From contig JBBRPR010000027.1 of the NCBI GenBank assembly GCA_038227875.1, forward strand, positions 1 through 64,000: 64,000 bases of DNA. Reading direction: 5' to 3'. Positions within the stretch are counted from its first letter, which is position 1, and every line of letters starts with the position of its first letter. Positions 1 to 41,328 of this stretch are shown here, piece after piece. Source of the stretch: Planctomycetota bacterium (lineage in GTDB: Bacteria; Planctomycetota; SZUA-567; H5-PLA8). The notes beneath the pieces are model-generated. The model was not told the DNA's origin and made no database searches. It worked only from the letters and a program-made list of their open reading frames with translations. The translations under genes were made by a program, and so were the position numbers.

Positions 1-6
1 CATTGG

Positions 7-20
7 TCATCGGTCATTTT
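7..20 (+). repeat. Left att core direct repeat
   Basis: TCATCGGTCATTTT is identical to 10287-10300. The match extends to ATTG(G/C)TCATCGGTCATTTT. Confidence 0.75.
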
Positions 21-30
21 CACAAAAACC

Positions 31-95
31 AAGTCCTTTAGTACAAAGGATTTACAGGAACACTAAATTTGAAATGGATACCCCTTTCGGATACC
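31..95 (+). promoter_or_regulatory. Left att arm: IHF-like palindrome and two GGATACC putative integrase arm sites
   Basis: AAGTCCTTT-AGTAC-AAAGGATTT at 31-53. GGATACC at 76-82 and 89-95; the same motif is repeated at the right end. Confidence 0.6.
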
Positions 96-109
96 TCTAA
101 AAGATGAAT

Positions 110-364
110 TCAAAGTACCTCCCTAAAAATCGTTACGGGGTCCACGTCTAGGGCTCTGCAGTACTCGATAAACTCCAAAACATCTAACCTACGTTTTCCC
201 TTTTCAACCTTACCAACGTAACTCTCCCATATGGGCTTTCCTTCTGGGGTTTTCAATTTCTTACACAGGTCCCGTTGAGTAAGGTTTTGAGCCCTTCTCA
301 GACGAACTAGGATTTCAATTAATTTATCGTACCTAGGACTTCCGGGCTCTGTCATGGGAATCAT
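110..364 (-). CDS. XRE-family HTH transcriptional regulator
   Basis: LRRAQNLTQRDL...YVGKVEKGKRRLDVLEF pattern typical of XRE HTH proteins. Confidence 0.85.
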   Translation of the reverse strand: MIPMTEPGSPRYDKLIEILVRLRRAQNLTQRDLCKKLKTPEGKPIWESYVGKVEKGKRRLDVLEFIEYCRALDVDPVTIFREVL

Positions 365-382
365 CGTACACGGAAAAGAATA

Positions 383-436
383 AATCTAAAATGGGTTTGG
401 ATTTATCTTGAACCCAAAATGGGTTTAGCTTATATC
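383..436 (+). promoter_or_regulatory. Tandem palindromic operators overlapping a divergent sigma70-like promoter
   Basis: AATCTAAAATGGGTT (383-397) and AACCCAAAATGGGTT (411-425). TTGAAC-N17-TATATC at 408-436. Confidence 0.55.
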
Positions 437-690
437 AAAAGTCCATAACCCATCTTTGTTGTGCAGTGGACAACGATAGTTAGCATGTAGAATGAGACTC
501 TGTTAGAGTCAAACTTCACTCATTTGAAAACGGACAATGAAAACCCGCGTCACTCATGTTAAAGCCGTACCGTTATTCACCTTCAATGTAGAACAATTGC
601 CGAGCGCAAAAAAGACGATTCCACTGCGCCACGATTTTAATAAGCGGCTTTTTAGTCGTGACTTGGGAATTAATCTAGAGATAAAATAGC

Positions 691-1770
691 ATGTCGGGCC
701 GAGCCAACCTGTTCCTACTAACATGTGTGCTAACATGCCGTAGCATTTGGGCGGAGGAGCACCAAACTCGAGTTTTCCCTCCGCTAGATGAGAATGAGTC
801 GGTGGTGAAATATTCCGAAAGAGTGGGAGTACCTAGTACTAAAACTATTGAGCTCGGAAATGGCATTAAGATATATCTCGTGCTCATCCCACCCGGGAAG
901 TTTATGATGGGAACTGTCGATCCTAAAGAGCCATCAAGAACGGACGTCTTTGGAAAGGTGATCACCGGTTGCGGAATTGTCTGTATTCTTGCCATTGGTG
1001 TTTGGTATGCGATTCGGTGGAGAGCCTCCGGTCGTGTTTCCTCCTTTTCACTGCGCTTTCTAATCGGGATTTCGTTCGTGGTCGCACTAATTTTGTATGG
1101 TATCGTTGATTGGATATACATCTCAGATAAATGGGCAAAGTATTACGTGGAGCACGACCGAGCTAAATGGGCTGATAGCAATGAGAGACCAGCGCGCGTA
1201 TGCGAGATTCGCAAACCGTTTTATATGAGCCGTACAGAGATAACACAGGAACAATATTATGAAATAACGGGCTCAAATCCAAGTACTTTCATTGGCAAGA
1301 GCTTACCCGTGGAAACGGTGTCGTGGACTGAAGCTCACGATTATTGTGTGAAGGTGACAGCGGCAACTAAGATTTCTATCCGGCTTCCAAATGAGACCGA
1401 GTGGGAATATTCGTGCAGATCGGGAATGCAGACTAATTATTACAGCGGTGATTCGGAAGCTGACTTAAAGCGAGTGGGTTGGTATTGCGATAATAGTAAT
1501 TATGCTACGCATCCTGTCAGCCAAAAAGAGGCTAACGCCTTTGGCTTGTTCGATATGCATGGCAATGTCTGGGAGTGGTGCGAGGACTGGTATAGAAATG
1601 ATTCGAGTGGTGAAGAAGGAATTGCACCGTCAAATACGTTTCGCGTAATTCGAGGCGGCTCTATGAATATGGAAGCAAAAGGTTGTAGGTCGGCTAGTCG
1701 CGCTGGTACGAACGGGCCAGACGATAGGCACTACAGCATTGGTTTTCGAATCATAACCGATTGCAATTAG
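691..1770 (+). CDS. Membrane-anchored FGE-sulfatase (SUMF1/formylglycine-generating-enzyme-like) domain protein
   Basis: Motifs IPPGKFMMG, RLPNETEWEYSCR, NAFGLFDMHGNVWEWC, RVIRGGS and IGFR. Signal peptide and two inserted TM segments. Confidence 0.9.
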   Translation: MSGRANLFLLTCVLTCRSIWAEEHQTRVFPPLDENESVVKYSERVGVPSTKTIELGNGIKIYLVLIPPGKFMMGTVDPKEPSRTDVFGKVITGCGIVCILAIGVWYAIRWRASGRVSSFSLRFLIGISFVVALILYGIVDWIYISDKWAKYYVEHDRAKWADSNERPARVCEIRKPFYMSRTEITQEQYYEITGSNPSTFIGKSLPVETVSWTEAHDYCVKVTAATKISIRLPNETEWEYSCRSGMQTNYYSGDSEADLKRVGWYCDNSNYATHPVSQKEANAFGLFDMHGNVWEWCEDWYRNDSSGEEGIAPSNTFRVIRGGSMNMEAKGCRSASRAGTNGPDDRHYSIGFRIITDCN

Positions 1771-1793
1771 CCGATCGTACCGAATTAGCCACT

Positions 1794-2167
1794 GGGGCCG
1801 AATGACTTACAGGCCCCCCTTCAGAGTGAATAGCATAGGCTGCATAAGCACTTACATCAACCCAACTTTCGCTATTGAAAGTCTATAAATTAGGTTGCTA
1901 GATTAGCGATTCTAGCACAGTTTCCAGCATTGGCCGGACTTGCAAGAACGAAGTATTGAGCAGAATTTGACCGATTTCAAACGATGTGCCACAGGTAATC
2001 GTCTTCAAATGCGACGCGAGGCGGCTGCCGATGAGGTGAAAGCTCACAATGCTAGTAACGACTTTAAGAAAGGGTTTGCAGATGAGTGCAAAGCAAAATA
2101 CAAAGTGAGCGATCCATCTGATCCCCCATGTTTGGCCTGTGACAGCACGCCAAAGTACAAGGAGTAG
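1794..2167 (+). pseudogene. Degenerate ORF remnant (copy A), possibly a toxin C-terminal tip
   Basis: Interrupted frame ending in a Cys-containing tail (NLTDFKRCA...CLACD). Shares sequence blocks with 2933-3056. Confidence 0.35.
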
Positions 2168-2193
2168 TCGCGTTCTGAGAAAGGGTCACTCTC

Positions 2194-2637
2194 ATGCATA
2201 TACTTTTGGTAATCTGCTCGATAATGTTGATACCTTGTTTGTTTGCTGCCGAATTGGGATCGCCGACGACCGACGAACGACTGAAAGGTTTAATTGGAAA
2301 GTATGACACATTCATTCGTGGAAAGGTGGTTTCCATATCACATAACCAGAACGCCCCGGAGGACTTTAAGGCTTTCACAGTTGTAGTCGAAGTGGAAGAA
2401 CAACTAAGCGGTGCGCCATACAATGAGAAACAGATTTCCGTTTTTATACACAGTCCTACAATGGAATTTGGAGGATTGCGAGAAAACGAGATTAAGGAGC
2501 ATCAATGTGTTTTTGCTTGTTCGTTTAAGGACGGAAAATTACAGGGATCGGCAACGCCGTTCGAAGGCCACGTCTTCAACGCGGCTGATATTGAAAGATT
2601 AAAGAAGTTCTTAAAAGAATCTAATGCCAAGAAATAA
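2194..2637 (+). CDS. Secreted hypothetical protein (possible immunity protein)
   Basis: 147-aa ORF with an N-terminal hydrophobic signal, directly behind the remnant ORF. Confidence 0.7.
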   Translation: MHILLVICSIMLIPCLFAAELGSPTTDERLKGLIGKYDTFIRGKVVSISHNQNAPEDFKAFTVVVEVEEQLSGAPYNEKQISVFIHSPTMEFGGLRENEIKEHQCVFACSFKDGKLQGSATPFEGHVFNAADIERLKKFLKESNAKK

Positions 2638-2706
2638 ATCAGCGGCCTAGAAGCCGATGGAGTGTAGCGGCTCAGGGTGTCCCCGCCCAAATTCTGATCG
2701 AAGTCG

Positions 2707-3056
2707 TTGCCAAATTCGCTCTGTACAAATGTAGCCCTAAAACAGGCCCGTATTCCCGAATTGTTGAGAAAATTGGAGCAGCGCAAGCGTGCGGGAATCC
2801 ATGGCTCCGGGTATGGAACGCTTACGATTTTCGATTACGATAGTTGCGCGTCTGGAGAATCTTATGCTCCGCATTCGCACCCCTCAACCGACCAATGCGC
2901 CGACATCGTGATTTTAGCAAACGAAGGTTGAAGGGGCCGAACGACTCTCAGGCCCCCTGTTAGCGTAGGCATCCAGAAGTTTCACAAGGTGCTTTATCCC
3001 GATCATTGAACGTTCTGCGAGCCTGTGCGGAATTTGGCCGATTTCAAACGATGTGC
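2707..3056 (+). pseudogene. Degenerate ORF remnant (copy B)
   Basis: In-frame stops. Block GCGGAATTTGGCCGATTTCAAACGATGTGC matches 1960-1989 at 28/30. Confidence 0.3.
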
Positions 3057-3240
3057 AGCATTTGTGTAGGGGCTATATCGTTTTATTCTTGCGCTAAAAT
3101 AGTCCATTTCATTATGCATTTGTATTCCTATTAAAATTAAATGTAGCATCAGATTAACAACAAACGGGAAAGGCAAATTAACCGCTACTAGGTCGGGATG
3201 GAATCCGCTAGTAAAACCTGATGCTACAAGTCGATACGTA

Positions 3241-3363
3241 TTACTTTCCTTTGGGTGTACCAGCAGTACCAGAAGTAGGTGCTGGGGGAGGTAGTTTATT
3301 GGGCTGAGAAATTGGAACAGGCATAGACTTCTGAGGTGGTAACTTATTAATTTTGATTTGCAT
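3241..3363 (-). CDS. 40-aa Pro/Lys-rich small protein (below the ORF-track cutoff)
   Basis: MQIKINKLPPQKSMPVPISQPNKLPPPAPTSGTAGTPKGK*. ATG lies 1 nt after the upstream stop, with AAAGGA as RBS. Confidence 0.55.
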   Translation of the reverse strand: MQIKINKLPPQKSMPVPISQPNKLPPPAPTSGTAGTPKGK

Positions 3364-3364
3364 C

Positions 3365-4303
3365 TTATTTTCCTTTTAAGTACATGTCGATTAAACGATT
3401 CTGTTCTATTTTAGAGAATGCCTGAACTGGTTCTTGTACTTGAACTATTGGGGCTTCAGGCTGTACATGAACTCTGGTATTATTTCTTAACTCGGAATCA
3501 ATAACTAGGGCTACTCTATTCATAGCATCCGTACAAGTATTTTCAATATCTCTTGACGTACTGGCGATGAAATTTAGATGCTTGTCACGTTCAGATGACA
3601 ATGGGGATAGTTCTGAAGTAACGGCATTAACCTCGTCGCGTAGGGCCTTTAGCTTAATTTCTAACGGAGTAATATCCGTATTTAAAGTACTAATTTTGTT
3701 CTGTAAATCCTCAATTTTGAATTGGTGCTCTTTTCTAAATGCTTCTTTCAATTCATTAAGGAGGTTACCTAGATGCTTTCTATCTGCATCGGATGGATCA
3801 AAGGCAAGAATTTTGGGGTAGTAATTACGTACTAGAACCGTGTAATAATTAACGGGCTCAATCGTTTTCTGAAGGTCCAGAATCATTTCTTGTAGGGAAT
3901 ACATATCTAAAGTCAACTCCTCCCGGCGCAAACTGAAATTATCAACGTCCGACGTGGTTGCTTTAAATCTGAATTTGTCCTTACGGGTTTGGGACTCACT
4001 AGCTTTAACGGTCTCAAGTTCCGAGCACAATTCTTGGAGCTTGGCTCTGTACCCCTCTAATTCGGCCTGAAGTAGTCTACGGGAGGCTAAATTATCAAGG
4101 ATAGCACTATTAGCATCTTCGTTGGCTTTGGATTTAGCATCTTCCAAGGTTTTAATACTAGCCTGTGCTAGTTCCTCATGTGAGCGCAAGTGCTGAACTT
4201 CCTGAACTACAGGTGCTACAGGGAGTACACGATTAGGGTTTTTCGTCTGAGGTACTGATTCGGGCTCTGGATTTACATTGTAATTTGTTCTTATTTCGTT
4301 CAT
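3365..4303 (-). CDS. Long coiled-coil hypothetical protein
   Basis: 312 aa, heptad-like and E/L/K-rich. AGGA RBS upstream. Confidence 0.8.
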   Translation of the reverse strand: MNEIRTNYNVNPEPESVPQTKNPNRVLPVAPVVQEVQHLRSHEELAQASIKTLEDAKSKANEDANSAILDNLASRRLLQAELEGYRAKLQELCSELETVKASESQTRKDKFRFKATTSDVDNFSLRREELTLDMYSLQEMILDLQKTIEPVNYYTVLVRNYYPKILAFDPSDADRKHLGNLLNELKEAFRKEHQFKIEDLQNKISTLNTDITPLEIKLKALRDEVNAVTSELSPLSSERDKHLNFIASTSRDIENTCTDAMNRVALVIDSELRNNTRVHVQPEAPIVQVQEPVQAFSKIEQNRLIDMYLKGK

Positions 4304-4365
4304 TTGGATTTTCCTAAAATGTTAGTATCTCTTCCTTCACATAAATATAATCCGGCATACTTTTA

Positions 4366-4788
4366 CTAAAAAAGTACAGCTATCACACGGTTAGAATTGA
4401 ACGTCAAAAGTACTAAGGGCTTACTAATTGAAAATTTAGAGAGATCATTTTCAATTACAGTCCAAGTCCCATTTTTATTAATAAGTACCTCATCATACGG
4501 AGTATCCTTCAGGGAATTAGCAATTCGGTAGCATGTTTGACGTGTTAGATGGATATCGTAATCCATTAATAACGTCCCCGGTAATTCAGGGATGGTTAGC
4601 CATTTCTGAGGACTAACTCTAAAAAGAGCCCTACATACGGACTCTGAGCTATCCGGGGTAAGTCCCTCCGAACGTAGGACTGCATCTAGCTCAATTGCAA
4701 GATCGTACCGTTTGGACTTACTAACACGGCTAAGACATTCAGGTATTAATAATTTAAGGACTTTAAGGCGTTCGTCTAGTGTGAGCAT
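4366..4788 (-). CDS. Hypothetical protein
   Basis: 140-aa ORF co-oriented with the element core. Confidence 0.65.
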   Translation of the reverse strand: MLTLDERLKVLKLLIPECLSRVSKSKRYDLAIELDAVLRSEGLTPDSSESVCRALFRVSPQKWLTIPELPGTLLMDYDIHLTRQTCYRIANSLKDTPYDEVLINKNGTWTVIENDLSKFSISKPLVLLTFNSNRVIAVLF

Positions 4789-5180
4789 ATCACCATTTGG
4801 GGTTAGTTTTGATTAAGACTAATTACAAAGTATTAATTAGTAGGATTCAAATTGAATCTAAGTTTTAATATGTCCCGGGATTAGAGGTAATATTACAATG
4901 TTCTAATAACATTATTACTATTTATTAATTTCCCTAGTGTGGTGAGCTGAGGAGCGATACTAGCGCAGGGGGTGTGTAAACTCAGGAAGAACCTAAGATT
5001 CCTAGGCAAATCGTCTTTTAACCTTTGTTTCTAAGGCATGAGTATAACCTGTTACTGCTAATGGACTTATAAGTATCATTTGGACTATGCCTTTAAACGT
5101 ACACAGTTCAACGCTACTAAGTTCAGACTACCGGCCTTCACTATTACGCCTTAGGACTGAGATAAGCCTATAGCTTTGCT

Positions 5181-5432
5181 TCTATCGTCACTAATACGCA
5201 AAGGTGACGATAGATTCAGGTTCAGGTTTTACCTATGAAAGGTGACGATGGTGACGATAGTGACGATAGAATCCGGGAGAAGTGGCAACAGCACGTTAGG
5301 GTGACGCTATATCTCTTTATCTATACCTTTTTATGATAAAGAATAAGTATCGTCACTATCGTCACTATCGTCACCTTTCATAGGTAAAACCTGAACCAAA
5401 TTCTATCGTCACTTATCGTCACTATCGTCACC
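5181..5432. repeat. Putative replication origin: GTGACGATA iterons and a 50-bp inverted repeat around an AT-rich core
   Basis: About a dozen GTGACGAT(A/G)-type copies on both strands. 5219-5268 is the inverted repeat of 5348-5397 with one mismatch. Lies directly downstream of the helicase gene. Confidence 0.8.
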
Positions 5433-6974
5433 TGTGATTGGTACGCGTTTAATAATATAGTACTTCCCGGACTTCGTCTTTTTACTTTGTACCTCAATAC
5501 CAAGCTCTTCCCGGATTGCCTCCACGAGTCTATCCAACCTTGCTTTGAGCTTATTTGGTGCACTAGGAAACTCCACAGGGACCTTATTATTTCCATACGT
5601 CCCCTGTAGTGCCAGTAGTAGACCCTGTGCCGTACCATTAAATATTACTTCCTGTTGTCCCGGGCATGCGGAAACTAAAACCTGAAGAGCCAATCCCACG
5701 GAGTCATTCTCAAGAGTGACTGTGCTGCAGTTACTGATATTCTTGAGATACGCTGAACTAAAGCTACCTTTAGGCAATCCTAGCTTGAACTCACACGCAT
5801 TTACCCAGATGTAAAATCCACTCATCCTAGGCAAGTTTTCTTTTGGCACTAGATTTGAATTCTGAAGTCCAAAACTAACGGCGTCTAATAGTGCCCCTAA
5901 AATATGAGGTACTTCGGAGTTAAAATCTTTATTATACTGCACCTCATCTACGCGTTCAGTCTTTGGGATTTCAGGCAAATCCAGCAATATACATCTACTC
6001 AATAAATCCCCCTTAGTTACTAGCTGCTCGATACAATTAATCATGCAGGGTTTTCTGGACTTAAACGAAGTCTGATCCGTATTTGCGTACAGCGTACGTT
6101 TACTTAACGCGCACCCCGTACTTAGTTTTGATAAATTATCACTATCCCTGAGTGATAGGTGAGATAGATTTTCAAAGATTAGGACTTGGTTAAATTTAGT
6201 TATCATCATTAACTGATCGGCTTCCGTTGGTAGTGCTATCCGCATTGAATCGTTAGGGTCAATTAATAATTTAGTAAATTCGCATAGCGTACTTTTAGCT
6301 GAACTATGCGGACCTATCACCACTAAATGCGGATAGCTCCCCTCGGGATTAAATAGCTGGATCAAAAATCCTAGATACAAAGCCCATGCGTCATCTGTCC
6401 TTATATTGACGTACTTTCTTAGAGCCTGAACTGTTCCACCCCGTATAGGTTTTGGTAGTGCTAGATTCTGCGGGGAGCGTATGAAATTTACTGGAGGATT
6501 TTTAATCTCCTCCCACCCATGAGAGCTAATTTTTATTACCGTCCATTCATCGTTGCATAGGTCCAGATAAATGTTATCCCCATGCTTGGCAATTCTAAAA
6601 TGTACCTCATCTTTCGTTCCTATACCACCTTCAATAATCATACTCTCTAACTGCAAGACAGCTTCAGTAATATTAGTTGAGTTTGGGAAGTCCTTATGGG
6701 TTAACTGATACATAACCCGCATTACACGTGCGAATGCAATTGATTTCAGTTCAAGTATTTTCGACGTGGAATTATGAGGCACTTTCACAAAGCACTCAAA
6801 CTTTGCATTGTAAAAAAACTTAAACGCTGAAAGTGCCTGATTTACCAATTTTGTTACCGCATGCACTGATTTTGGTTTCTTTACTTTTTTATCATCATCA
6901 TTTTCGTCATTATTCAGGCTACAATCGTTAGGAATTGGGGTTTCCATCTTGGACTCCATATCGGTTAAAGGCAT
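5409..6974 (-). CDS. Primase-associated P-loop NTPase/helicase of mobile elements
   Basis: Walker A-like GPHSSAKST, Walker B-like LIFENL, motifs RTLY and DLLSR. Overlaps the primase gene. Confidence 0.8.
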   Translation of the reverse strand: MPLTDMESKMETPIPNDCSLNNDENDDDKKVKKPKSVHAVTKLVNQALSAFKFFYNAKFECFVKVPHNSTSKILELKSIAFARVMRVMYQLTHKDFPNSTNITEAVLQLESMIIEGGIGTKDEVHFRIAKHGDNIYLDLCNDEWTVIKISSHGWEEIKNPPVNFIRSPQNLALPKPIRGGTVQALRKYVNIRTDDAWALYLGFLIQLFNPEGSYPHLVVIGPHSSAKSTLCEFTKLLIDPNDSMRIALPTEADQLMMITKFNQVLIFENLSHLSLRDSDNLSKLSTGCALSKRTLYANTDQTSFKSRKPCMINCIEQLVTKGDLLSRCILLDLPEIPKTERVDEVQYNKDFNSEVPHILGALLDAVSFGLQNSNLVPKENLPRMSGFYIWVNACEFKLGLPKGSFSSAYLKNISNCSTVTLENDSVGLALQVLVSACPGQQEVIFNGTAQGLLLALQGTYGNNKVPVEFPSAPNKLKARLDRLVEAIREELGIEVQSKKTKSGKYYIIKRVPITGDDSDDK

Positions 6975-7929
6975 CTGTAATTTTACGCACTAATTCACTT
7001 CTTGGATACATCGGATCGCACTTGTAATTATTCAGTATTAGCTCTATTGCTATTTCCGGATTTAATCGATACGTTTCAATTAACGTCCGGATCACATACC
7101 ACGTATAGCTATCTCTTCCCCCGCCATTTCTATCTTTAGCTCGAATCGCTGGGAGAGTAGATAACCACCCTCTGGCACAGGATTCCATTAGTGAAGTATC
7201 TAGACCTACTAGGGGGGCTATTCTTAAGGGCTCTTCAGGAATGTTGGATTTCGCTTCGCTCCATTTATCAGCAAACCAGTTATTATAATCCTCAATTTTA
7301 GGGATATCCGATTTTATAATTCCGAATGAATTCTCAGTAGGTTTAGCCGTCCATAGCCAGCACAATTGTCTCCCTTGAGCAGTGGGATCACATTTTAATT
7401 TAAATCCACGCGTTAGAATTCTCGATACATGAGAATTAATTTTCTTAACCCCTAATCCATCGGTACCCAACGGTATTTTGATTGTACTTGGCAAATCCAA
7501 ATAAATTCGTACGCCACTACCCCCTGTACTGAAAGTAATAAAGCATTGCCCATCCATTTTGGCATCAAATTCTAATGCCGCTTTTATTGCTTCGTTTGTG
7601 CTCTTATACTGGGCTGTCTTATTTCCCTTCTCCACATCTAAATCGAAGAAGATGTAGTCATAGCAATAATCCCGATGATTGCAGGTGCTACATCCTAACT
7701 TCAGCCATTGGGGGTTATAATCCAAATCCATATAGTTCACGAAGGGTCGTAGTGATTGCGTACCATATCCAAAATACGCAAATTCATAAAACTTCCAGTA
7801 CTTTCCTTTCCATGGATTAAGCCCTACATCATTCTTAATGAGGTCAAGTATTTTCATACTGAAACAAACCCGGGATTCATTTGAATTAATCTTGTAATAG
7901 TGTTCAGCACTACAGTACTTAACTCGCAA
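6928..7929 (-). CDS. AEP-superfamily primase/polymerase with PriCT-like C-terminal domain
   Basis: FFDLD (DxD motif) and STGGSGVRIY (motif II-like). C-terminal GGGRD...NNYKCDPMYPRSEL resembles PriCT. Start codon uncertain. Confidence 0.7.
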   Translation of the reverse strand: MRVKYCSAEHYYKINSNESRVCFSMKILDLIKNDVGLNPWKGKYWKFYEFAYFGYGTQSLRPFVNYMDLDYNPQWLKLGCSTCNHRDYCYDYIFFDLDVEKGNKTAQYKSTNEAIKAALEFDAKMDGQCFITFSTGGSGVRIYLDLPSTIKIPLGTDGLGVKKINSHVSRILTRGFKLKCDPTAQGRQLCWLWTAKPTENSFGIIKSDIPKIEDYNNWFADKWSEAKSNIPEEPLRIAPLVGLDTSLMESCARGWLSTLPAIRAKDRNGGGRDSYTWYVIRTLIETYRLNPEIAIELILNNYKCDPMYPRSELVRKITDAFNRYGVQDGNPNS

Positions 7930-8147
7930 TCCCAGATTCCTGACTCATTTTGAAACCAAATCTCATTAAATAGTTCTTCATGAATTTTATTTTTGCAATC
8001 ATGGGACTCTAAGTCCTCTAATAATTCTGGAATATTTACATAGCGTCGGGGTAACTGTCCCCCAAGTGCTATACTGCAATCGCACACGGCGTTAATTAAC
8101 TCCGCATAAGTTTTGATCTTATCAACTTTATTAATCATCGTATCCAT
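7854..8147 (-). CDS. Hypothetical protein
   Basis: 97-aa ORF with GGAG RBS, in the operon between the HTH and primase genes. Confidence 0.65.
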   Translation of the reverse strand: MDTMINKVDKIKTYAELINAVCDCSIALGGQLPRRYVNIPELLEDLESHDCKNKIHEELFNEIWFQNESGIWDCELSTVVLNTITRLIQMNPGFVSV

Positions 8148-8208
8148 TTAGTACTCCATATTTTTAGGTGTAGTTGCTGACTCTATTAGTGCCACAAAGC
8201 ACTATTAG

Positions 8209-8427
8209 TTATTCAGTCTTTGTGTTTACTTTTTCGTATTGCTGTAATAGGACTGCAAAATACTCTGTAGGACTAACGCCTAATACTTTAGCAACCTTGA
8301 CTAACATAGAAATTTTGGGATTAGCCTTCTTCTCAAGGCTATTGACAGTACCCTGCGAAATTTTCGCATAGCATGCAAGGTCCTCGTGCCGAAGTCCTTT
8401 AGAAATTCTTAGTTCTCGTGGTGTCAT
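8209..8427 (-). CDS. XRE/Cro-like HTH protein
   Basis: ELRISKGLRHEDLACYAKISQGTVNSLEKK...LVKVAKVLGVS. Confidence 0.85.
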   Translation of the reverse strand: MTPRELRISKGLRHEDLACYAKISQGTVNSLEKKANPKISMLVKVAKVLGVSPTEYFAVLLQQYEKVNTKTE

Positions 8428-8500
8428 GGGCTATACCTATACTTTGGGGTTAAAAAAATTCTGAATAAAACAAACGTCTGTTTAATATACTACGCTACTA

Positions 8501-8528
8501 ATTATAACATATTAAATCCAAAAGTCAA
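8501..8528 (-). promoter_or_regulatory. Sigma70 promoter for the HTH-primase-helicase operon
   Basis: Minus-strand TTGACT-N16-TATAAT with extended -10 (TGT). Confidence 0.65.
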
Positions 8529-8625
8529 GGAACTACTGACCTATATTCTGTGGATTGTCAACATATTTCTTTGTAATTATTTGATTTCTTTATCATCTGA
8601 GCTTGCATTCAAAATCAAATAAATA

Positions 8626-8651
8626 AGGACTCCCATTCGTAGCGGAGTCCT
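8626..8651 (-). terminator. Hairpin after the integrase gene
   Basis: AGGACTCC...GGAGTCCT stem followed by a T-rich tract on the minus strand. Confidence 0.55.
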
Positions 8652-8683
8652 ATAAAGGTGCAGATTAAAAGTCAGATGAACTA

Positions 8684-10117
8684 CTACGCCCTAACGTCCT
8701 GAGGCAGTAATCGCGCGTAATGATCCCGTACCATCTGAACACCATCCCTCAGGAATGCTGCAGCGGGCTCTGCTTTTTGGTGCCTAAGAATCAATTCCCG
8801 GGCTCTGGAGCGTCTTAGAGTCCTACAATCCATCCTACCGGGCGTAGTAAATCCTAGCTCTATAGCGCACGTTCTAAGTACCTTCCTGTATTCCTTCCAC
8901 AATTGCTGTCCTTTCCATATACGATTTTCCTTCTCAAAATCTGATCCAACTTGGGTATCCCTTTTTGTGAGCCCCTTTTCCTTTGGAAATAGGACTACAT
9001 TTCCTTGAGTACTTCTACGCGTTAAAATCTCATGGATGTAATCGGGATAATTCAGGACTCCACTGCATCCATCGTTTTTCATATCCCGGATAACTTCAGA
9101 ATTGTGCTCTAACGCGCATAGCTCGAACGTACGAGCTTCTAGATTCACTCTAGAGGATTGTAGAAAGGTTAGTTCCTCTGGACGTGCTGCAAGCCCGTAC
9201 TGCACTAGGATAAGGTCACTCCAGTACTTTCCGTACTTCTCTTGAGCCACAAAAGCTAACTTCAGAACATCAACGAAGCTTTCTATCCAATAATAATCTT
9301 TAGATTTCTTCTTAGAGCCATTAAGATTTTGCTTCCTGTATCTCTCAATTTTGGAATCATCAAACCCTATACTCTGATCCTTCATCAATGAAACCACTGA
9401 GAAGGATAACTTTTTGACGTACGGAACTCGTAACTTTCCGTTCTTCCCGGGAAGTTTAGCCTTCAGAAACTCAATAATCATTTCAGATGTTAAGTCCGTA
9501 AGTAGAGTACTACTGGGAATGATTTTGGAGAATACCGTAAAGTGCGAGGTGTATTCCGTTAACGTATCGGGCTTAATTTCCTTAAGAATTACCCTGTCCC
9601 TCAAATTCTTTAGGAACTTATCGATAGCATCTTTGAGTGTTTTTTTGGAGTTAAAGCCCCTGTGAGCCCTTCCAAGTTGCGCTAGTACCGCTTCACGCTC
9701 TGAAAGCTTATCCTGCAATATAGAGATATCGTGTAGGGCTTGCTTGTACTTGCGCTCTAGGAGGATGTAATCATGAGCGGAATTTATTCCAGAATTAAGG
9801 GCTTTAGCTTCAAGGTCCGTTAATTCGTGTTCCTCATCAAACACAGGCAGGGCATCGGCTACACTTTGAATGTCTATTTGGTCTTGGGGCTTTAGATTTA
9901 AAATGCGTTTAGTTACTTCAGATAATTTACTAAAATCATAGTTCCCCTGAATTACACTATAAATCTCTAGGGCATAGTTTTCAGCTATACCCCTGTCTTG
10001 AGTCCCCAAACCCTTACGGTATTCGGTCCCTTCAAACGTGAAGCGTACAAGTTGAGCTAGAGAATTGTTGTTTTTGGAGTACACCGTAACACCGGGATGG
10101 ACTTGATTGTGAGCCAT
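8684..10117 (-). CDS. Tyrosine recombinase/integrase (divergent)
   Basis: LAARPEEL (R), MKND (K), CRTLRR (HxxR position), RDHY (Y). N-terminal arm-binding-like region (FTFEGTEYRKGLGTQDR). GGAG RBS. Confidence 0.85.
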   Translation of the reverse strand: MAHNQVHPGVTVYSKNNNSLAQLVRFTFEGTEYRKGLGTQDRGIAENYALEIYSVIQGNYDFSKLSEVTKRILNLKPQDQIDIQSVADALPVFDEEHELTDLEAKALNSGINSAHDYILLERKYKQALHDISILQDKLSEREAVLAQLGRAHRGFNSKKTLKDAIDKFLKNLRDRVILKEIKPDTLTEYTSHFTVFSKIIPSSTLLTDLTSEMIIEFLKAKLPGKNGKLRVPYVKKLSFSVVSLMKDQSIGFDDSKIERYRKQNLNGSKKKSKDYYWIESFVDVLKLAFVAQEKYGKYWSDLILVQYGLAARPEELTFLQSSRVNLEARTFELCALEHNSEVIRDMKNDGCSGVLNYPDYIHEILTRRSTQGNVVLFPKEKGLTKRDTQVGSDFEKENRIWKGQQLWKEYRKVLRTCAIELGFTTPGRMDCRTLRRSRARELILRHQKAEPAAAFLRDGVQMVRDHYARLLPQDVRA

Positions 10118-10163
10118 TGGTTTTTCTCCAGATATAGGGGTCTAGGGGGTCTAAATCCTGAAC

Positions 10164-10258
10164 CCATTATAGGTCCTATAATGGATACCGCAACAGGATA
10201 CCTATCCTATGGATACCGCTTAGGATACTTGCTAAGTCAATATGTGATAAGGGGGTTA
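10164..10258 (+). promoter_or_regulatory. Right att arm: palindrome, four GGATAC(C/T) arm-type sites and an IHF-like site
   Basis: CCATTATAGG-T-CCTATAATGG at 10164-10184. GGATACC at 10183, 10196 and 10211, GGATACT at 10223. GATAAGGGGGTTA at 10246-10258. Confidence 0.6.
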
Positions 10259-10286
10259 TATTATTTCAGGAATCTTTAGAAATTGC

Positions 10287-10300
10287 TCATCGGTCATTTT
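10287..10300 (+). repeat. Right att core direct repeat
   Basis: Identical to 7-20. Composition switches to GC-rich immediately after. Confidence 0.75.
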
Positions 10301-10350
10301 TCATTTAACGGCGCTTCGCTGAGGGCGGGCGTGCATGGGGCTGCGATTGC

Positions 10351-10398
10351 GGGATCGGGAATCGGGATCGGGAATTGGGATTCGGGATTCGGGATTCG
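10351..10398 (+). repeat. Short tandem 6-7-mer repeat (GGGATTC-like)
   Basis: gggatcgggaatcgggatcgggaattgggattcgggattcgggattcg. Confidence 0.8.
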
Positions 10399-10434
10399 AA
10401 ACAGAAACGAATCGCGCTTTTGTCACGCTCTTGG

Positions 10435-10481
10435 TCGGCTTGGAAGGCCGATCGTCAGTAGCCATGGGCGGGAGCCAGTGG
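10435..10481 (+). repeat. REP-like palindromic repeat (family B, solo arm)
   Basis: Near-identical to 12089-12135. Confidence 0.75.
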
Positions 10482-10900
10482 CACACAACTGCGGGGCAGA
10501 TTGCAAGCGCGGCGCGTCTCTACTCGCCTCAACGACAGACGGCATGCTGCGATTGTGCGGGGAGGTATTCATTGTGAGGACTCCTGGGCGATGAGATGAT
10601 CGATAAGAGTGTTGCGATAGCCTGGAGACTGAATATGAAGAGCGGGCGCGGAATATCTGAAATAACTCTGCATCTATTAAGCAACCGTCGACGGCAAAAG
10701 TCAAGTAAAATCTTGAAAATTCGTGTGTAAAAGTAAAGTATTTTTCAATCAATAAGGACTTATGAGAATTTCATTTTGAGTTTCCATGGTGCAGGTTCAG
10801 TTCGATTGGGCCGAAGGAGCGGTGAGGAGCGCGTCGTAATGCGAAAGTGTCCTTATATATAAGCGGTGATTGATCCCGAAAATCAAGGGAAATCTGGCGA

Positions 10901-11030
10901 ATGAGCTAAAATGAGCAGGTTTGAGAGCGAATGATAGCAAATGAGCTAAAATGAGCGCGAATGAGCAGGAATGAGCACGAATGAGCACGAATGAGCGTAA
11001 ATGAGCGCGTTTGAGCGTAATTGAGCACGT
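10901..11030 (+). repeat. 10-bp tandem array, 13 units, consensus ATGAGC-NNNA
   Basis: Exact 10-nt phasing of (A/T)TGAGC-like starts from 10901 to 11021. Confidence 0.9.
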
Positions 11031-11128
11031 GGCACGAAGATGTTGATTCGTGGCACGAGAGCGGTGAGGTTGGACTTGGGGCGGCGCTGAATCTGATGGG
11101 AACGACGGGCGAGCGACAGGATCCTCAG

Positions 11129-11785
11129 ATGGCGGACAAACCTAGGTGGTGGCGGTTTCAATTCAGTTTAAAGATGGCGATTGGGATTTCGCTGGTGGCG
11201 GGGTTGTTGGTGGGCGGGGGTGTCTGGTACTTCAAGAGCACGCGGGTATTGGTGGTGATTTCAAACAAGCTTGAACGTCCGGTTTCAGTGGCGCTGATTA
11301 GTTATTATACAAATTCAGGGGGAAAGCAGCCCGAAGTCGATAAAGCAAAATTCGTGGTCGGGGCTAACTCTTCTGAATCGGTGCATCTTCGCGTTGAGGA
11401 AGGTCGCCGCTCGTATGTGGATTATGACGTTTATGAGGAGTCCAAGGAGTATTTTTATCGAGCACATGCTAGTGTTGCGGTAAATCAAGGGACGACTACT
11501 CAATTTAGTATCGATTCGGAGGGGATCTTCGAATATTCCATTACCAATCGATCGGGCAACCCAATTCGTGTGGAATTATGGCTTCGTGATCATCATTTAA
11601 CTGTAGTCCCTTTAGCCGACCCTATATTGCCTGCGGGTGCCACTCGGTATTTCCAACCACCTGGATATGCAAAAACACTTGTTAGGATTTTTCTAAAGGG
11701 GGCTACGGAACCCATTGTGCGAAGCGTCTGGGATTCACAAGTGTATGATTACGTTGTGACGGAAGATGGCACTGTGGTGCCTTAG
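11129..11785 (+). CDS. Membrane-anchored hypothetical protein
   Basis: N-terminal KPRWWRFQFSLK motif plus TM helix, followed by a beta-rich ectodomain. Start chosen at the ATG after AGGA. Confidence 0.75.
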   Translation: MADKPRWWRFQFSLKMAIGISLVAGLLVGGGVWYFKSTRVLVVISNKLERPVSVALISYYTNSGGKQPEVDKAKFVVGANSSESVHLRVEEGRRSYVDYDVYEESKEYFYRAHASVAVNQGTTTQFSIDSEGIFEYSITNRSGNPIRVELWLRDHHLTVVPLADPILPAGATRYFQPPGYAKTLVRIFLKGATEPIVRSVWDSQVYDYVVTEDGTVVP

Positions 11786-11799
11786 TTTGCGCGGTTCGA

Positions 11800-11890
11800 T
11801 AGTTCGGGCTTTCAGCCCTTTGGGGTCAGGGAGTGATTTATTCCCAGGGCGATGCCCTGGGCTGGTATGGCGCCGGGCCTTTGGCCCTGT
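11800..11890. repeat. REP-like multi-hairpin repeat
   Basis: Hairpins GGGCTTTCAGCCC, CCCAGGGCGATGCCCTGGG and GGGCCTTTGGCCC. Confidence 0.6.
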
Positions 11891-12088
11891 TGAGGCGGGC
11901 GCTGATGGAAGCTCTGTTCATCCTCCACGCCATGCTCTCCAGCAACTTCAGAAAGTCGGCTGGATGCAACGGACTCAACTGACACCACCGCCTGAAGGCG
12001 ATGGCAAGCAACGGCTTGAACTGCAACGGCAACTATATCTGCAATGTTACCTACGGCTGGAATAGCAGCGGGCCGTTCGGGTTGTTGC

Positions 12089-38473: not shown

Positions 38474-40015
38474 ATGCACACTGTGAGGATCATGACAATC
38501 ATTGCGGGCCCTTGGCCTAAGTTCCCATTAGTTTACGAGATTAACACACGTATCTGGCTGAATGAACTTTCGGCTCGCGCTAACCGCGGCCTGTTCCTGG
38601 ATCAGGTGCCCAACGAAGAACTCGAACGCATCGCGCGGCTGGGTTTTCACTGCATCTGGCTGATGGGCGTATGGACCACCAACGACGAAGCCATCCGCAT
38701 TTCGCGCACCGATCCGGACCTGCAGAAGGACTACAAGAAGGCGCTGCCCGACGTCGCGACTCAAGACATCATCGGCTCGCCGTACGCAGTGTCGAAATAC
38801 GAAGTCTCGCCGAAGCTCGGCGGCCGCCAGGCGCTGGCGGGCATTCGTGAAAAGATGGGCCGCTACGGTCTGCGCCTGATGCTCGACTTCGTTCCCAACC
38901 ATTTTTCACGCGACCATTGGTCCATCGCCGAACAACCCGATGTCCTCGTGCAGGGCACCGACGACGATCTGGCGCGCAATCCGAAAGCGTTTTTCAAATC
39001 GCCGTCTGGAAAAGTAATCGCCTGCGGCCGCGATCCCTATTTCCCCGCGTGGGAGGACACCGCGCAGATCAACTACGCTCAGGCCCCCGGCCGCGCGTTG
39101 ATGAGAAAGAAGCTGCTCGATGTCGCGTCCCAGTGCGATGGCGTGCGCTGCGACATGGCGATGCTGATCCTGCCGGAAATTCTCGAGCGGACGTGGGGCC
39201 CCAAGCTCGGACCCAATCCCAACAAGACCAGCTTCTGGAAGGAAACGATTCCCGAAGTGCTTAAGCAGGAGCCGCATTTCCTGTTCATGGCCGAAGCGTA
39301 CTGGGACCTGGAATGGCGGCTGCAGCAGGAAGGCTTCAATTTCACCTACGACAAGACGCTTTACGACCGCCTGCGCAAGAGCGATTTCAGCGGCGCGCGT
39401 CAGCATCTGCAGGGCGACAAGAGTTTCGAAGAGCGCTGCGCCCGCTTCATTGAAAATCACGACGAACCGCGCGCCGCCGCGAGTTTCGGGCCGGGCCGCG
39501 CACGCAGCGCCGCCGTCGCCACGTTTTTCGGGCCGGGACTGAAACTGTTTTACGAGGGCCAGCTCGAAGGCCGCAAAGTTCGCCCGCCCGTGCAGCTCGG
39601 CCGGCGCCCGCAGGAACCCGAAGACATCGAAACGGCCATCTTCTACGAGAAGATCCTCGACGTGCTTCACGATCCGATTTTCCAGGATGGCAACTTCGAA
39701 GTCCGCGACGCGCAGTCCGCCGGCTGGGGCGACGTCTCCAACGATGCCATCCTTGCGCTCTACTGGACGCCCTCCGCGCGCGCCACGCAGCGTTACATTG
39801 GCTACCTGATCGTCGTGAATTTGAATGGCCTGCGCGCCTACGGCCGCATCCCGCTGCCACAGAATACGTACCTCTCCGGCAAGCAGTACGTGTTCTACGA
39901 CCGCTACGACGCCAAGCGCTACGAACGCGACGGTAACGAACTCGCCTGGCCCGGCCTGTACGTCTCGCTCGAAGCACATCAGGCCCATCTGTTTGAGATC
40001 ACGGCCAAGGCGTAG
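38474..40015 (+). CDS. Alpha-amylase family (GH13) protein
   Basis: MLDFVPNH, DGVRCDMA, MAEAYW and FIENHDE. Confidence 0.9.
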   Translation: MHTVRIMTIIAGPWPKFPLVYEINTRIWLNELSARANRGLFLDQVPNEELERIARLGFHCIWLMGVWTTNDEAIRISRTDPDLQKDYKKALPDVATQDIIGSPYAVSKYEVSPKLGGRQALAGIREKMGRYGLRLMLDFVPNHFSRDHWSIAEQPDVLVQGTDDDLARNPKAFFKSPSGKVIACGRDPYFPAWEDTAQINYAQAPGRALMRKKLLDVASQCDGVRCDMAMLILPEILERTWGPKLGPNPNKTSFWKETIPEVLKQEPHFLFMAEAYWDLEWRLQQEGFNFTYDKTLYDRLRKSDFSGARQHLQGDKSFEERCARFIENHDEPRAAASFGPGRARSAAVATFFGPGLKLFYEGQLEGRKVRPPVQLGRRPQEPEDIETAIFYEKILDVLHDPIFQDGNFEVRDAQSAGWGDVSNDAILALYWTPSARATQRYIGYLIVVNLNGLRAYGRIPLPQNTYLSGKQYVFYDRYDAKRYERDGNELAWPGLYVSLEAHQAHLFEITAKA

Positions 40016-40026
40016 TGCTCAACAGA

Positions 40027-40194
40027 GTCATCGGTCATTTTTCAGTGGTCATCGGTCATTTGTCATTTGAACGGCAACAGCGCTCTCGTCTATCGCGAGA
40101 GCGGCTTGAATTCAGCACACGCTTTGAGAAGATCAAGTCTTCGTGAGTCCCAATCCGCGACAGCGCCAATGAAACATGACCGATGACCAATGAC
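40027..40194. repeat. Host GGTCAT(T/C) heptamer repeat cluster in inverted arrangement; matches the element att core
   Basis: 40028-40044 equals 10287-10303. 40046-40061 equals 4-19. The reverse complement of 40176-40192 equals 1-17. Confidence 0.85.
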
Positions 40195-41328
40195 TCCGTT
40201 CCCGATCTTCTCATCATTGGCGGTGGCGTCATTGGCCTGAGTCTGGCCGACCGCGCGTTGCGCGATGGGTTGCGCGTGAAGGTGCTCGATAAGTCCACGC
40301 CCGGCCGCGAGTCGTCGTGGGCTGGGGCGGGGATGATCACGTGCCGGCCGCGGCCGCGCGTGCGCGAAGGCATTCCGGATTATCACGATCTCACGCTGCT
40401 GGCGGCGAAGCTCTACCCGGAATGGACCGCGCGGCTGCAGGCGGAGACGGGCATCGACACGGGCTACCGCGTCTCCGGCGCGCTGGAGTTACTGCCGCAG
40501 ACGCTGCTTGATGAAGAGGAACAGAACGTCGCGTCGCTGATCGCGGGAGGCCGTGAACGCGGCATGCCGGCCCGGCGCATCGACCAACTGGAGCTGCGCC
40601 AGCGCGAACCGGGATTGAACGCGGAGATCTTCAGCGGCGCCGTGGAGTACACCACGGAAAGCCAGATCCGAAGTCCGTGGCTGGTCGGCGCGCTGCTGTC
40701 CAGCATCCAGAAGCGCGGCGGGAGCGTCGAGCCGGAGGCTGCCGTCGCCGACGTGACGCTGAGCACCGACGGTTCGCGTGCGACCGGCGTGGTGCTGAAG
40801 TCGGGTCGGGAACTACCGGCCGGCGCGGTGGCCGTCTGTTCCGGCGCGTGGGCCGCGGAACTGCCGGCGCTGGTGAAACTCGCGCCGGCCTGCGGCAAAG
40901 TTCATCCGGTGAAGGGCCAGTTGCTCTGCTACAACGCCGACCCGAAACTCGCCCGGCGCGTGATGACCTGCGACAAGAATTACATCGTGCCGCGCGGCGA
41001 CGGCATTTATCTGATCGGCGCGACGCACGAATTATCCGGCTTCGAAAAGACGCCGACCGAAGCCGGCCGCGAGCAGTTGACAAAGTTTGCGCACGCGCTG
41101 CTCCCCGGACTGAAGAATTTTGCCCCGATCAAAACCTGGGCAGGCTTGCGCCCCGGCATCAAAGGCAAACACCCGCTGCTGGGCGAAGTGCGGAGCACCC
41201 AGCGCCTGTTCGTCGCCTGCGGCCACTACCGTAATGGCCTGACCCTAGCTCCCGCGACGGCGGAGCTGCTCAACGCTGCGATCCAAGGTCGCGAGACTGC
41301 CGTGGGGATTGAGGCGTGGCGGGTGTAG
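40183..41328 (+). CDS. thiO: Glycine oxidase ThiO-like FAD oxidoreductase
   Basis: IIGGGVIG, SSWAGAGM, PVKGQ, WAGLRP and GHYRNGLTLAP. Confidence 0.8.
   Translation: MTNDSVPDLLIIGGGVIGLSLADRALRDGLRVKVLDKSTPGRESSWAGAGMITCRPRPRVREGIPDYHDLTLLAAKLYPEWTARLQAETGIDTGYRVSGALELLPQTLLDEEEQNVASLIAGGRERGMPARRIDQLELRQREPGLNAEIFSGAVEYTTESQIRSPWLVGALLSSIQKRGGSVEPEAAVADVTLSTDGSRATGVVLKSGRELPAGAVAVCSGAWAAELPALVKLAPACGKVHPVKGQLLCYNADPKLARRVMTCDKNYIVPRGDGIYLIGATHELSGFEKTPTEAGREQLTKFAHALLPGLKNFAPIKTWAGLRPGIKGKHPLLGEVRSTQRLFVACGHYRNGLTLAPATAELLNAAIQGRETAVGIEAWRV

Follow-up and report, generated by a model that had tools for sequence, protein, structure and literature searches.

Integrative elements that carry a tyrosine integrase usually target a single tRNA gene, and integrases in general are valued and understood as single-site tools. 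Attachment sites (att) borne by chromosomal repeats nevertheless have precedents in phiRv1 with REP13E12 and in the Nf phages with dRS3. The chromosomal attachment site (attB) of phiRv1 in Mycobacterium tuberculosis lies inside the REP13E12 repeat and is used by a serine integrase (PMC9317374), and the neisserial filamentous prophages (Nf1/MDA) integrate into the commonest repeat of the dRS3 family, which comprises about 700 copies, the Nf phage recombinase being proposed to drive rearrangements from one dRS3 repeat to another (PMC3898611). Here we analyse a 64,000-nucleotide (nt) stretch of DNA from a Planctomycetota bacterium (GCA_038227875.1), hereafter the window, which comprises bases 1 to 64,000 of contig C27 (JBBRPR010000027.1) in an assembly of 176 contigs and 9.34 Mb; base 1 of the window is a contig end. 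Its leftmost part is a 10.28-kb integrative element which, in our reading, was probably inserted into one arm of a host palindromic repeat by its own tyrosine integrase, and for which this repeat family probably provides many docking sites. An initial annotation, made from the sequence alone, put the locus forward as a candidate for an undescribed system; this goes too far, since recombinases of other classes are known to integrate elements into dispersed repeats.

The element is bounded by two copies of the 14-mer TCATCGGTCATTTT, one at window 7..20 (+) in the left attachment site (attL) and one at 10287..10300 (+) in the right attachment site (attR). Allowing at most one mismatch, a 13-mer of TCATCGGTCATTTT is found five times in the window, as against 0.09 expected, and none of 100 shuffles reaches five. 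The DNA between the two core copies (21..10286; 10,280 bp including one core copy) is element-specific by its open reading frames (ORFs) and its GC content of about 0.40: the bins from 1 to 10000 have values of 0.39-0.47, and those past bin 11000 mostly 0.52-0.68. Both the composition and the repeated 14-mer bear out the bounded, AT-rich block described in the initial annotation. The assembly contains one copy of the element, and the whole 64-kb window is devoid of tRNA and tmRNA genes. On the left, bases 1..20 (+) are the end of a host repeat arm whose remainder lies on contig C60; on the right, the arm resumes at 10301..10324 (+). In a profile of this repeat arm, attL matches positions 8-59 and attR positions 37-83, and when the element and one core copy are removed in silico, the resulting junction gives one continuous match over positions 8-79 with 65.2 bits, compared with about 70-79 bits for intact arms. 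attL and attR complement each other as the two halves of a single target and share a short repeated core, and the crossover probably lies within the 14-bp identity. Beyond the core, the right end of the element agrees with the host arm at 19 of 20 nt (repeat family D12), a likeness that fits an element attachment site (attP) mimicking attB and not a target-site duplication. Since removal restores the target under either mechanism, the direct repeat might also be a target-site duplication left by a transposase, or the element might have been captured between two repeat copies. We consider this highly improbable: the element has no transposase gene, a target duplication of 14 bp would be long, the right end mimics the arm beyond the repeated core, and each flank holds only part of an arm, the two parts together making up one.

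The target belongs to a large repeat family. Across the assembly there are 33 occurrences of the 13-mer (in two cases, a pair of them is one site present on overlapping contig ends), nearly all within one shared context of about 80 nt. With a repeat-arm profile built from 28 copies, 99 arm matches (E < 1e-3) are found on 42 contigs, many of them convergent pairs spaced 3-95 nt apart, and the 99 arms merge to 66 loci. The repeat is an intergenic hairpin of about 170 nt with heptamer-built arms of about 65 nt and unique tails, present as inverted doublets and as singlets. A complete copy folds into a long hairpin at -49.2 kcal/mol (z = -6.4), and none of 200 shuffles folds as well. By a crude gene test, 0 of the 61 evaluable loci lies inside a long ORF with high GC at third codon positions; the genes flanking these 61 loci are arranged in tandem at 35, convergently at 14 and divergently at nine, with one side unresolved at three. 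Together with the arm split by the element, these counts confirm the earlier proposal of integration into a multi-copy, intergenic, heptamer-containing repeat. An unoccupied copy, which that proposal had placed near 40 kb, belongs to the same family by profile (40007..40205, with one arm at 40007-40074 on the + strand and an inverted partner at 40168-40205 on the - strand), and the 17-nt exact matches reported within it at 40028-40044 and, inverted, at 40176-40192 can be read directly.

Conservation along the arm is highest, at 90% or more in each column, in the block that surrounds the core, i.e., the attB block. Tyrosine-integrase attB sites typically measure about 23 bp. The rebuilt 23-bp site is found unchanged in 12 other repeat copies of the assembly, and the 23-base attB pattern, with up to two mismatches, has 60 matches in the source genome (30 per strand), none in a reversed control and one in 16 other genomes of the host family. 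With identical 23 bp in 12 copies, the genome offers the required sequence many times, and, with near-copies at about 60 places in addition, it is probable that the element has many equivalent, gene-free docking sites. By sequence comparison, the repeat is specific to the host lineage, within collections that include no genome of the same genus. Among 185,579 species genomes, excluding the source genome, the exact 23-mer is found in a single Oscillatoriaceae metagenome-assembled genome (MAG), where it sits within a plain TTGGTCA-type heptamer array beside other short tandem repeats (record L016, 280-345); this match is probably a coincidence of simple repeats. STRR2 repeats are tandem TTGGTCA heptamers of cyanobacteria, and the resemblance to them suggested by the initial annotation does not go beyond the shared heptamer unit, as the host genes are Planctomycetota-type and the repeat is a long palindrome rather than a plain tandem array. 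A REPIN/RAYT system was considered for the repeat and rejected, none of the eight Y1_Tnp matches in the genome having a copy within 1.5 kb.

The host DNA to the left of the element is found on another contig. The reverse complement of C60 ends in an exact copy of the first 141 bases of C27. Exact overlaps of 141 nt recur at 18 further contig-end pairs (36 oriented pairs), which suggests that a de Bruijn graph with k = 141 underlies the assembly. On C60, the core is preceded by the left half of the repeat arm and, further upstream, by host-type DNA with a GC content of 0.52-0.65, and the genes of this DNA, with DUF1559, SASA/glycosyl-hydrolase, matrixin and GFO_IDH_MocA domains, are Planctomycetota-type. 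The initial annotation had reasoned that element DNA, a tRNA or a gene end to the left of base 1 would speak against integration into the repeat; C60 instead shows GC-rich host DNA with a left half-arm.

The presumed agent of insertion is a divergent tyrosine integrase of 477 aa encoded next to attR (8684..10117, -). Its only sequence-model match to an integrase is phrog_1 in PHROGs (E 9e-7). An AlphaFold2 model of the protein (predicted local distance difference test score, pLDDT, 79.8) yields 30 matches at E <= 0.001 in a Foldseek search of the PDB, with lambda Int at the top (1z1b_B, E 9.6e-7) and Tn1549 Int, XerA, the integron integrase and Cre among the others. Judged by its predicted structure, the protein is a very divergent integrase with a lambda-type tyrosine recombinase fold, in agreement with the tyrosine type implied initially. 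In an alignment of the integrase with 11 relatives from its own and related genomes, which are 18-29% identical to it across the full alignment, R312, R432, R435, R436, D458 and Y467 are invariant in all 12 sequences; K347 is invariant in an alignment of the five closest sequences. The catalytic Arg I, Lys, Arg II and Tyr nucleophile are all present. As an observation on the wider group, the Planctomycetota-type integrase clade keeps R-x-x-R-R and L-R-D in place of HxxR and the second His/Trp (the Pfam and NCBIfam models were scanned with the window member as sole representative of the clade). Residues 10-56 of the model form three beta strands and a helix, like an arm-binding domain. In the DNA, two GGATACC repeats at 76-95 (feature 73..96, +; repeat family D7) lie near the left end of the element, and four GGATAC(C/T) repeats found by motif scan at 10183-10229 (feature 10180..10229, +) lie between the integrase gene and attR. 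All six have the same orientation and fall within 110 nt of the element ends, out of 14 GGATACY matches in the 64-kb window. These clusters are candidate arm-type sites of the integrase.

The integrase relatives at hand are distant, at no more than 36% identity in any collection. Four paralogs in its own genome share 28-36% identity, and none of the seven paralogous integrase loci of that genome lies near the repeat. Matches are present in six of 60 related genomes, at 32% identity at best, and a profile search of metagenome contigs returned four distant loci with 22-30% identity; this profile was made from the five-sequence alignment, the 12-sequence alignment having no stretch conserved enough to search with. 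No closer relative was found in genome contigs or viral contigs, a word search of 5.8 billion proteins returned the query alone, and a 30-mer from the left end of the element has no exact match in metagenome or viral contigs. The initial annotation had asked where homologs of the integrase insert, and the answer does not favour its proposal, albeit in a weak test with homologs only 22-36% identical: their sites are unrelated, with a repeat arm at 0 of 18 loci and a tRNA gene at four, many of the 18 being short contigs, so that the other 14 say little. At one tRNA-linked locus, a paralog with 28% identity on contig C54 stands at the right end of a lower-GC island of about 20 kb (13202-33365), whose boundaries are marked by a 49-bp direct repeat overlapping tRNA-Pro(GGG). 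At the others, a tRNA gene adjoins the 5' end of the integrase gene (tRNA-Val in G006, tRNA-Leu in G013 and tRNA-Leu in L039). A fair reading of this distant comparison is that the habit of the integrase family is conventional and that the present member differs.

The topology of the contig ends hints at the use of more than one repeat copy. In reverse complement, contig C2 has the final T of the core as its last base and shares a 141-nt overlap with contig C94, and C2 and C94 together make up an unoccupied palindromic repeat copy. C27, in turn, starts precisely where the sequences of the C60 and C2 arms cease to differ. The last 20 nt of C2 in this orientation are the first 20 of C27; across all oriented contig-end pairs, no other suffix-prefix match of 12-58 nt occurs, and none of the other repeat loci, about 60 in number, lies at a comparable assembly break. 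This pattern suggests a single unbinned unitig joining C2 to the left end of the element, which would explain all four ends (C60, C27, C2 and C94). As a de Bruijn graph cannot create an edge without reads that contain it, the pattern suggests that in part of the sampled population the left end of the element is joined to the second repeat copy, that of C2/C94.

Three public sequencing runs were examined as assembled contigs. In a source-like run, the element has a depth of 9-12 and the adjoining host contig 9.7, i.e., about one copy per genome, and a second sample of the same study contains identical pieces at about 3x. Loose contig ends at 10282 and 10319 resemble other repeat copies. Where repeat arms are truncated, low-GC DNA follows only at the element junction, and no second integrated element is apparent in the binned contigs.

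Several observations weigh against an integrase-driven element with many docking sites. The assembly shows no more than one complete insertion, and the second junction is a deduction from contig ends; its reciprocal, which would join the right end of the element to C94, is absent, C27 and C94 both being unbroken there. No joint appears in the contigs of the public runs, in which a contig assembled with k = 31 continues unbranched for 10 nt beyond window base 1. With a depth close to that of the host, the element gives no indication of existing as a free multicopy circle. No natural empty site of this locus was found, in comparison genomes that include none of the same genus, and none of the collections searched yielded a close relative of the integrase or of the element for a comparison of targets; the more distant relatives linked to tRNA genes (4 of 18 loci) use the conventional target. 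Lambda Int has two catalytic His residues, one in HxxR and a His/Trp nine residues before the Tyr. The present family has R432-x-x-R435 and D458 at Tyr-9, and so Arg and Asp at these two positions as assigned by spacing. The integrase itself has no Pfam match even at E <= 10 and none to NCBIfam or to PDB sequences, no excisionase was recognised among the ORFs of the element, and the 309-aa primase-like protein described below has Arg at the motif II His position, where 29 of 34 homologs have His. Finally, the same single junction would result if attL had recombined with the C2 copy in a rearrangement.

Two other explanations draw on these observations. The element might be of the ordinary single-site kind, its attB falling within a repeat copy by chance, with a unique context needed or the element fixed, and with the C2 link an artefact or a strain variant. 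The single full insertion, the missing reciprocal junction and the lack of joints in contigs agree with this, as does the arm at the locus, which is of a rarer subtype continuing with AACGGCGCTTCGC and found at 4-6 of 60 sites. It is at odds with the identity of 12 other copies across the 23 bp around the core, with four contig ends lying exactly as one hidden junction between C2 and the element predicts, and with the unbroken assembly at the remaining repeat loci; we regard it as unlikely, if the most serious competitor. The C2-element junction could instead be real and reflect a chromosomal rearrangement between attL and the C2/C94 arm, by homologous or by integrase-catalysed recombination. 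Such an event fits the one new junction implied and the 20-45 nt of identity shared by the arms, and PMC3898611 contains a similar proposal for dRS3 and the Nf integrase in Neisseria; the reciprocal product C60-C94, however, is also absent from the contigs, and we hold this explanation to be quite unlikely. Insertion by the integrase into one of many usable repeat copies is the reading we continue to prefer: use of several sites is plausible, and the assembly gives a hint of it, but it is not proven.

Besides the integrase, the element encodes a replication module. A tight string of minus-strand genes comprises an XRE-type helix-turn-helix (HTH) regulator of 72 aa (8209..8427, -; Pfam HTH_3, E 5.7e-11), a 97-aa ORF without a family in library scans (7854..8147, -), which is the first after the XRE gene in this replication operon, a primase-like protein of 309 aa counted from an inner start (6928..7857, -) and a P-loop replicative helicase-like protein of 521 aa (5409..6974, -). 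Adjoining the end of the helicase gene is an array of the iteron ATCGTCAC (5184..5431), with 11 copies in both orientations, a 65-nt inverted repeat (I1) and tandem rows; 11 of the 13 matches in the window fall inside the array, as against 2.4 expected. Apart from a chance match of a microRNA model on the iterons, an Rfam scan of window 1-12000 found nothing. The array is a plausible candidate for a replication origin.

The 521-aa protein, for which DUF5906 and VapE are leads, has 137 homologs at E <= 0.001, with 28-39% identity among the 120 matches listed. Three clusters of homologs are named "putative DNA primase/helicase" by their source, and a few are fused to PF13362, PF09250 or PF01751 domains, which we take to be Toprim_4, Prim-Pol and Toprim, respectively. 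A paralog with 33% identity resides in an 802-aa open frame on contig C112 (6969-8315), whose end overlaps C118 by 114 nt, and may be part of a further element of this kind. The 309-aa protein has 36 remote relatives at E <= 0.001 among 1.84 billion representatives; 18 of these were scanned for C-terminal domains, which are DUF5906/D5 in six, AAA_25 in four, DUF3987 in two and none in six. The N-terminal domain of the family shares the motifs DxD, SxxGxG-H and D..GRQ (34 homologs). D72, D74 and D157, which correspond to motifs I and III of the archaeo-eukaryotic primase (AEP) superfamily, are invariant or nearly so in 35 sequences. In keeping with these motifs, the structure model (pLDDT 83.7) matches the folds of the RepB' primase, the NrS-1 primase-polymerase, the LigD polymerase, CAPP and Prim-PolC; the top folds are almost all AEP enzymes, with weak matches (best E 7.2e-4, TM-score 0.35-0.5). 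The AEP-like primase, the helicase and the iterons bear out the replication cargo announced by the initial annotation, and the gene content suggests that the element is probably self-replicating.

A second XRE-type HTH regulator of 84 aa lies near the left end (110..364, -; Pfam HTH_3, E 3.5e-7), followed by a cargo protein of 359 aa with an FGE-sulfatase domain (691..1770, +; PF03781, E 5.3e-41). Within the gene of the latter, window 1507-1592 has 80-87 nt at 79-83% identity (42 nt at 90%) to host genes on six contigs, a stretch that is a conserved motif of a family expanded in the host. ORFs of 147 aa (2194..2637, +) and 140 aa (4366..4788, -) fall into no family in library scans, and one of 312 aa (3365..4303, -) has only weak coiled-coil matches, below the cut-off, to SMC, Rad50 and filament models. 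An intergenic part of the element (2678-2790 and 2944-3012) has a higher GC content than the rest; about 113 nt of it are matched at about 90% by other contigs in the source-like run (one of 2606 nt with a depth of 13.8), and related sequence may sit elsewhere in the community.

Scans of the 11 ORFs against Pfam, PHROGs, NCBIfam and PADLOC gave no match to a capsid, terminase, size-redirection, packaging, helper-hijack, conjugation, relaxase or defence function, the PADLOC matches being to HTH domains only. The initial annotation had called the element satellite-like; with no packaging or helper-hijack gene in these four libraries, "satellite" is a guess about transfer and not a finding. The set of integrase, XRE regulators and primase/helicase, together with a length of about 10 kb, does resemble the cores of phage satellites, which would make it a P4-like element or one like the phage-inducible chromosomal islands (PICI), needing a helper phage to be transferred. 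With no structural or packaging match for the 11 ORFs, and with the element, the integrase and the helicase all unmatched in viral contigs, a phage satellite is, in our estimation, very unlikely.

An integrative element that replicates on its own and reaches the repeat through its integrase would work as follows. Entry would be by conservative site-specific recombination between the attachment site of the element and the most conserved block of one repeat arm, carried out by the lambda-type tyrosine integrase with its N-terminal beta-sheet domain and the GGATACC clusters as candidate arm sites, with strand exchange inside the 14-bp identity of TCATCGGTCATTTT. After excision, the element would replicate from the iteron origin by means of its own AEP-like primase and helicase, with the two XRE regulators in control, and it may still be active today. 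If this is correct, a short attB present in dozens of gene-free copies would let the element avoid both competition for its site and gene disruption; a REP-like repeat family would be tied to the traffic of mobile elements and possibly to rearrangements between repeats; and a poorly tractable bacterial group would gain a multi-copy landing system. The integrase is also of interest in itself: it is an orphan whose relatives in the collections searched do not exceed 36% identity, and its catalytic signature is unusual. A more ambitious idea, towards which we are tentative and lean slightly to the sceptical side, is that a tRNA-type integrase was retargeted to the core of a species-specific hairpin, giving rise to a self-replicating 10-kb element that has dozens of harmless sites, behaves much like a site-specific transposon and is able to recombine repeat copies, remodelling the chromosome in doing so. 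Were that so, the contig graph would give the first glimpse of a single natural population in which the element occupies two repeat copies.

To the right of the element, the host intergenic DNA seems rich in varied short tandem arrays. A heptamer array with the unit CGGGAAT, in about seven copies, occupies window 10350-10398, 50 nt right of attR. At 10897-11029, about 12 tandem 10-mers (unit GCGAATGAGC) follow a conserved leader and form a second dispersed repeat. Sequence of this type makes up overlaps of 90-138 nt between six contig ends (C25, C32, C53, C65, C90 and C102), so that the GCGAATGAGC family breaks the assembly, whereas the heptamer palindrome does not.

Compared with known systems, the element stands closest in architecture to lambda-type (heterobivalent) islands and prophages at tRNA genes, with which it has in common the integrase fold, an integrase gene adjoining one end, candidate arm repeats at both ends, a short core and complementary att halves. 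It differs from them in its target, which is an intergenic palindrome dispersed over the genome in about 60 near-copies instead of a single-copy tRNA gene, and its integrase departs from the lambda-type signature of two catalytic His residues. The same difference in target separates it from the relatives of its own integrase (22-36% identity), which sit at tRNA-Pro, tRNA-Val and, twice, tRNA-Leu. The host repeat resembles the REP/REPIN sequences associated with RAYT transposases in being intergenic, palindromic and lineage-specific and in forming inverted doublets and singlets, but it has heptamer arms of about 65 nt and flanks no Y1_Tnp gene. Unlike the insertion sequences (IS) that target REP repeats, the insert is a 10-kb integrase element. 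The literature searched yielded no description of the heptamer repeat or of a bacterial tyrosine integrase whose attB is REP-like, although such work may exist. The nearest parallels in target choice come from other recombinases. PhiRv1 is likewise an integrase-borne element with its attB in a repeated chromosomal sequence, and several REP13E12 copies are said to be usable by it, in work attributed to Bibb and Hatfull in 2002; its integrase, however, is of the serine type, and REP13E12 is gene-sized with few copies, as opposed to the intergenic hairpin of about 170 nt at dozens of loci here. The Nf recombinase is a transposase-like enzyme and not a tyrosine integrase. Nf1/MDA share with the present element the use of a family of short intergenic inverted repeats as integration site, and differ from it in being filamentous phages whose host and repeat are unrelated to those described here.

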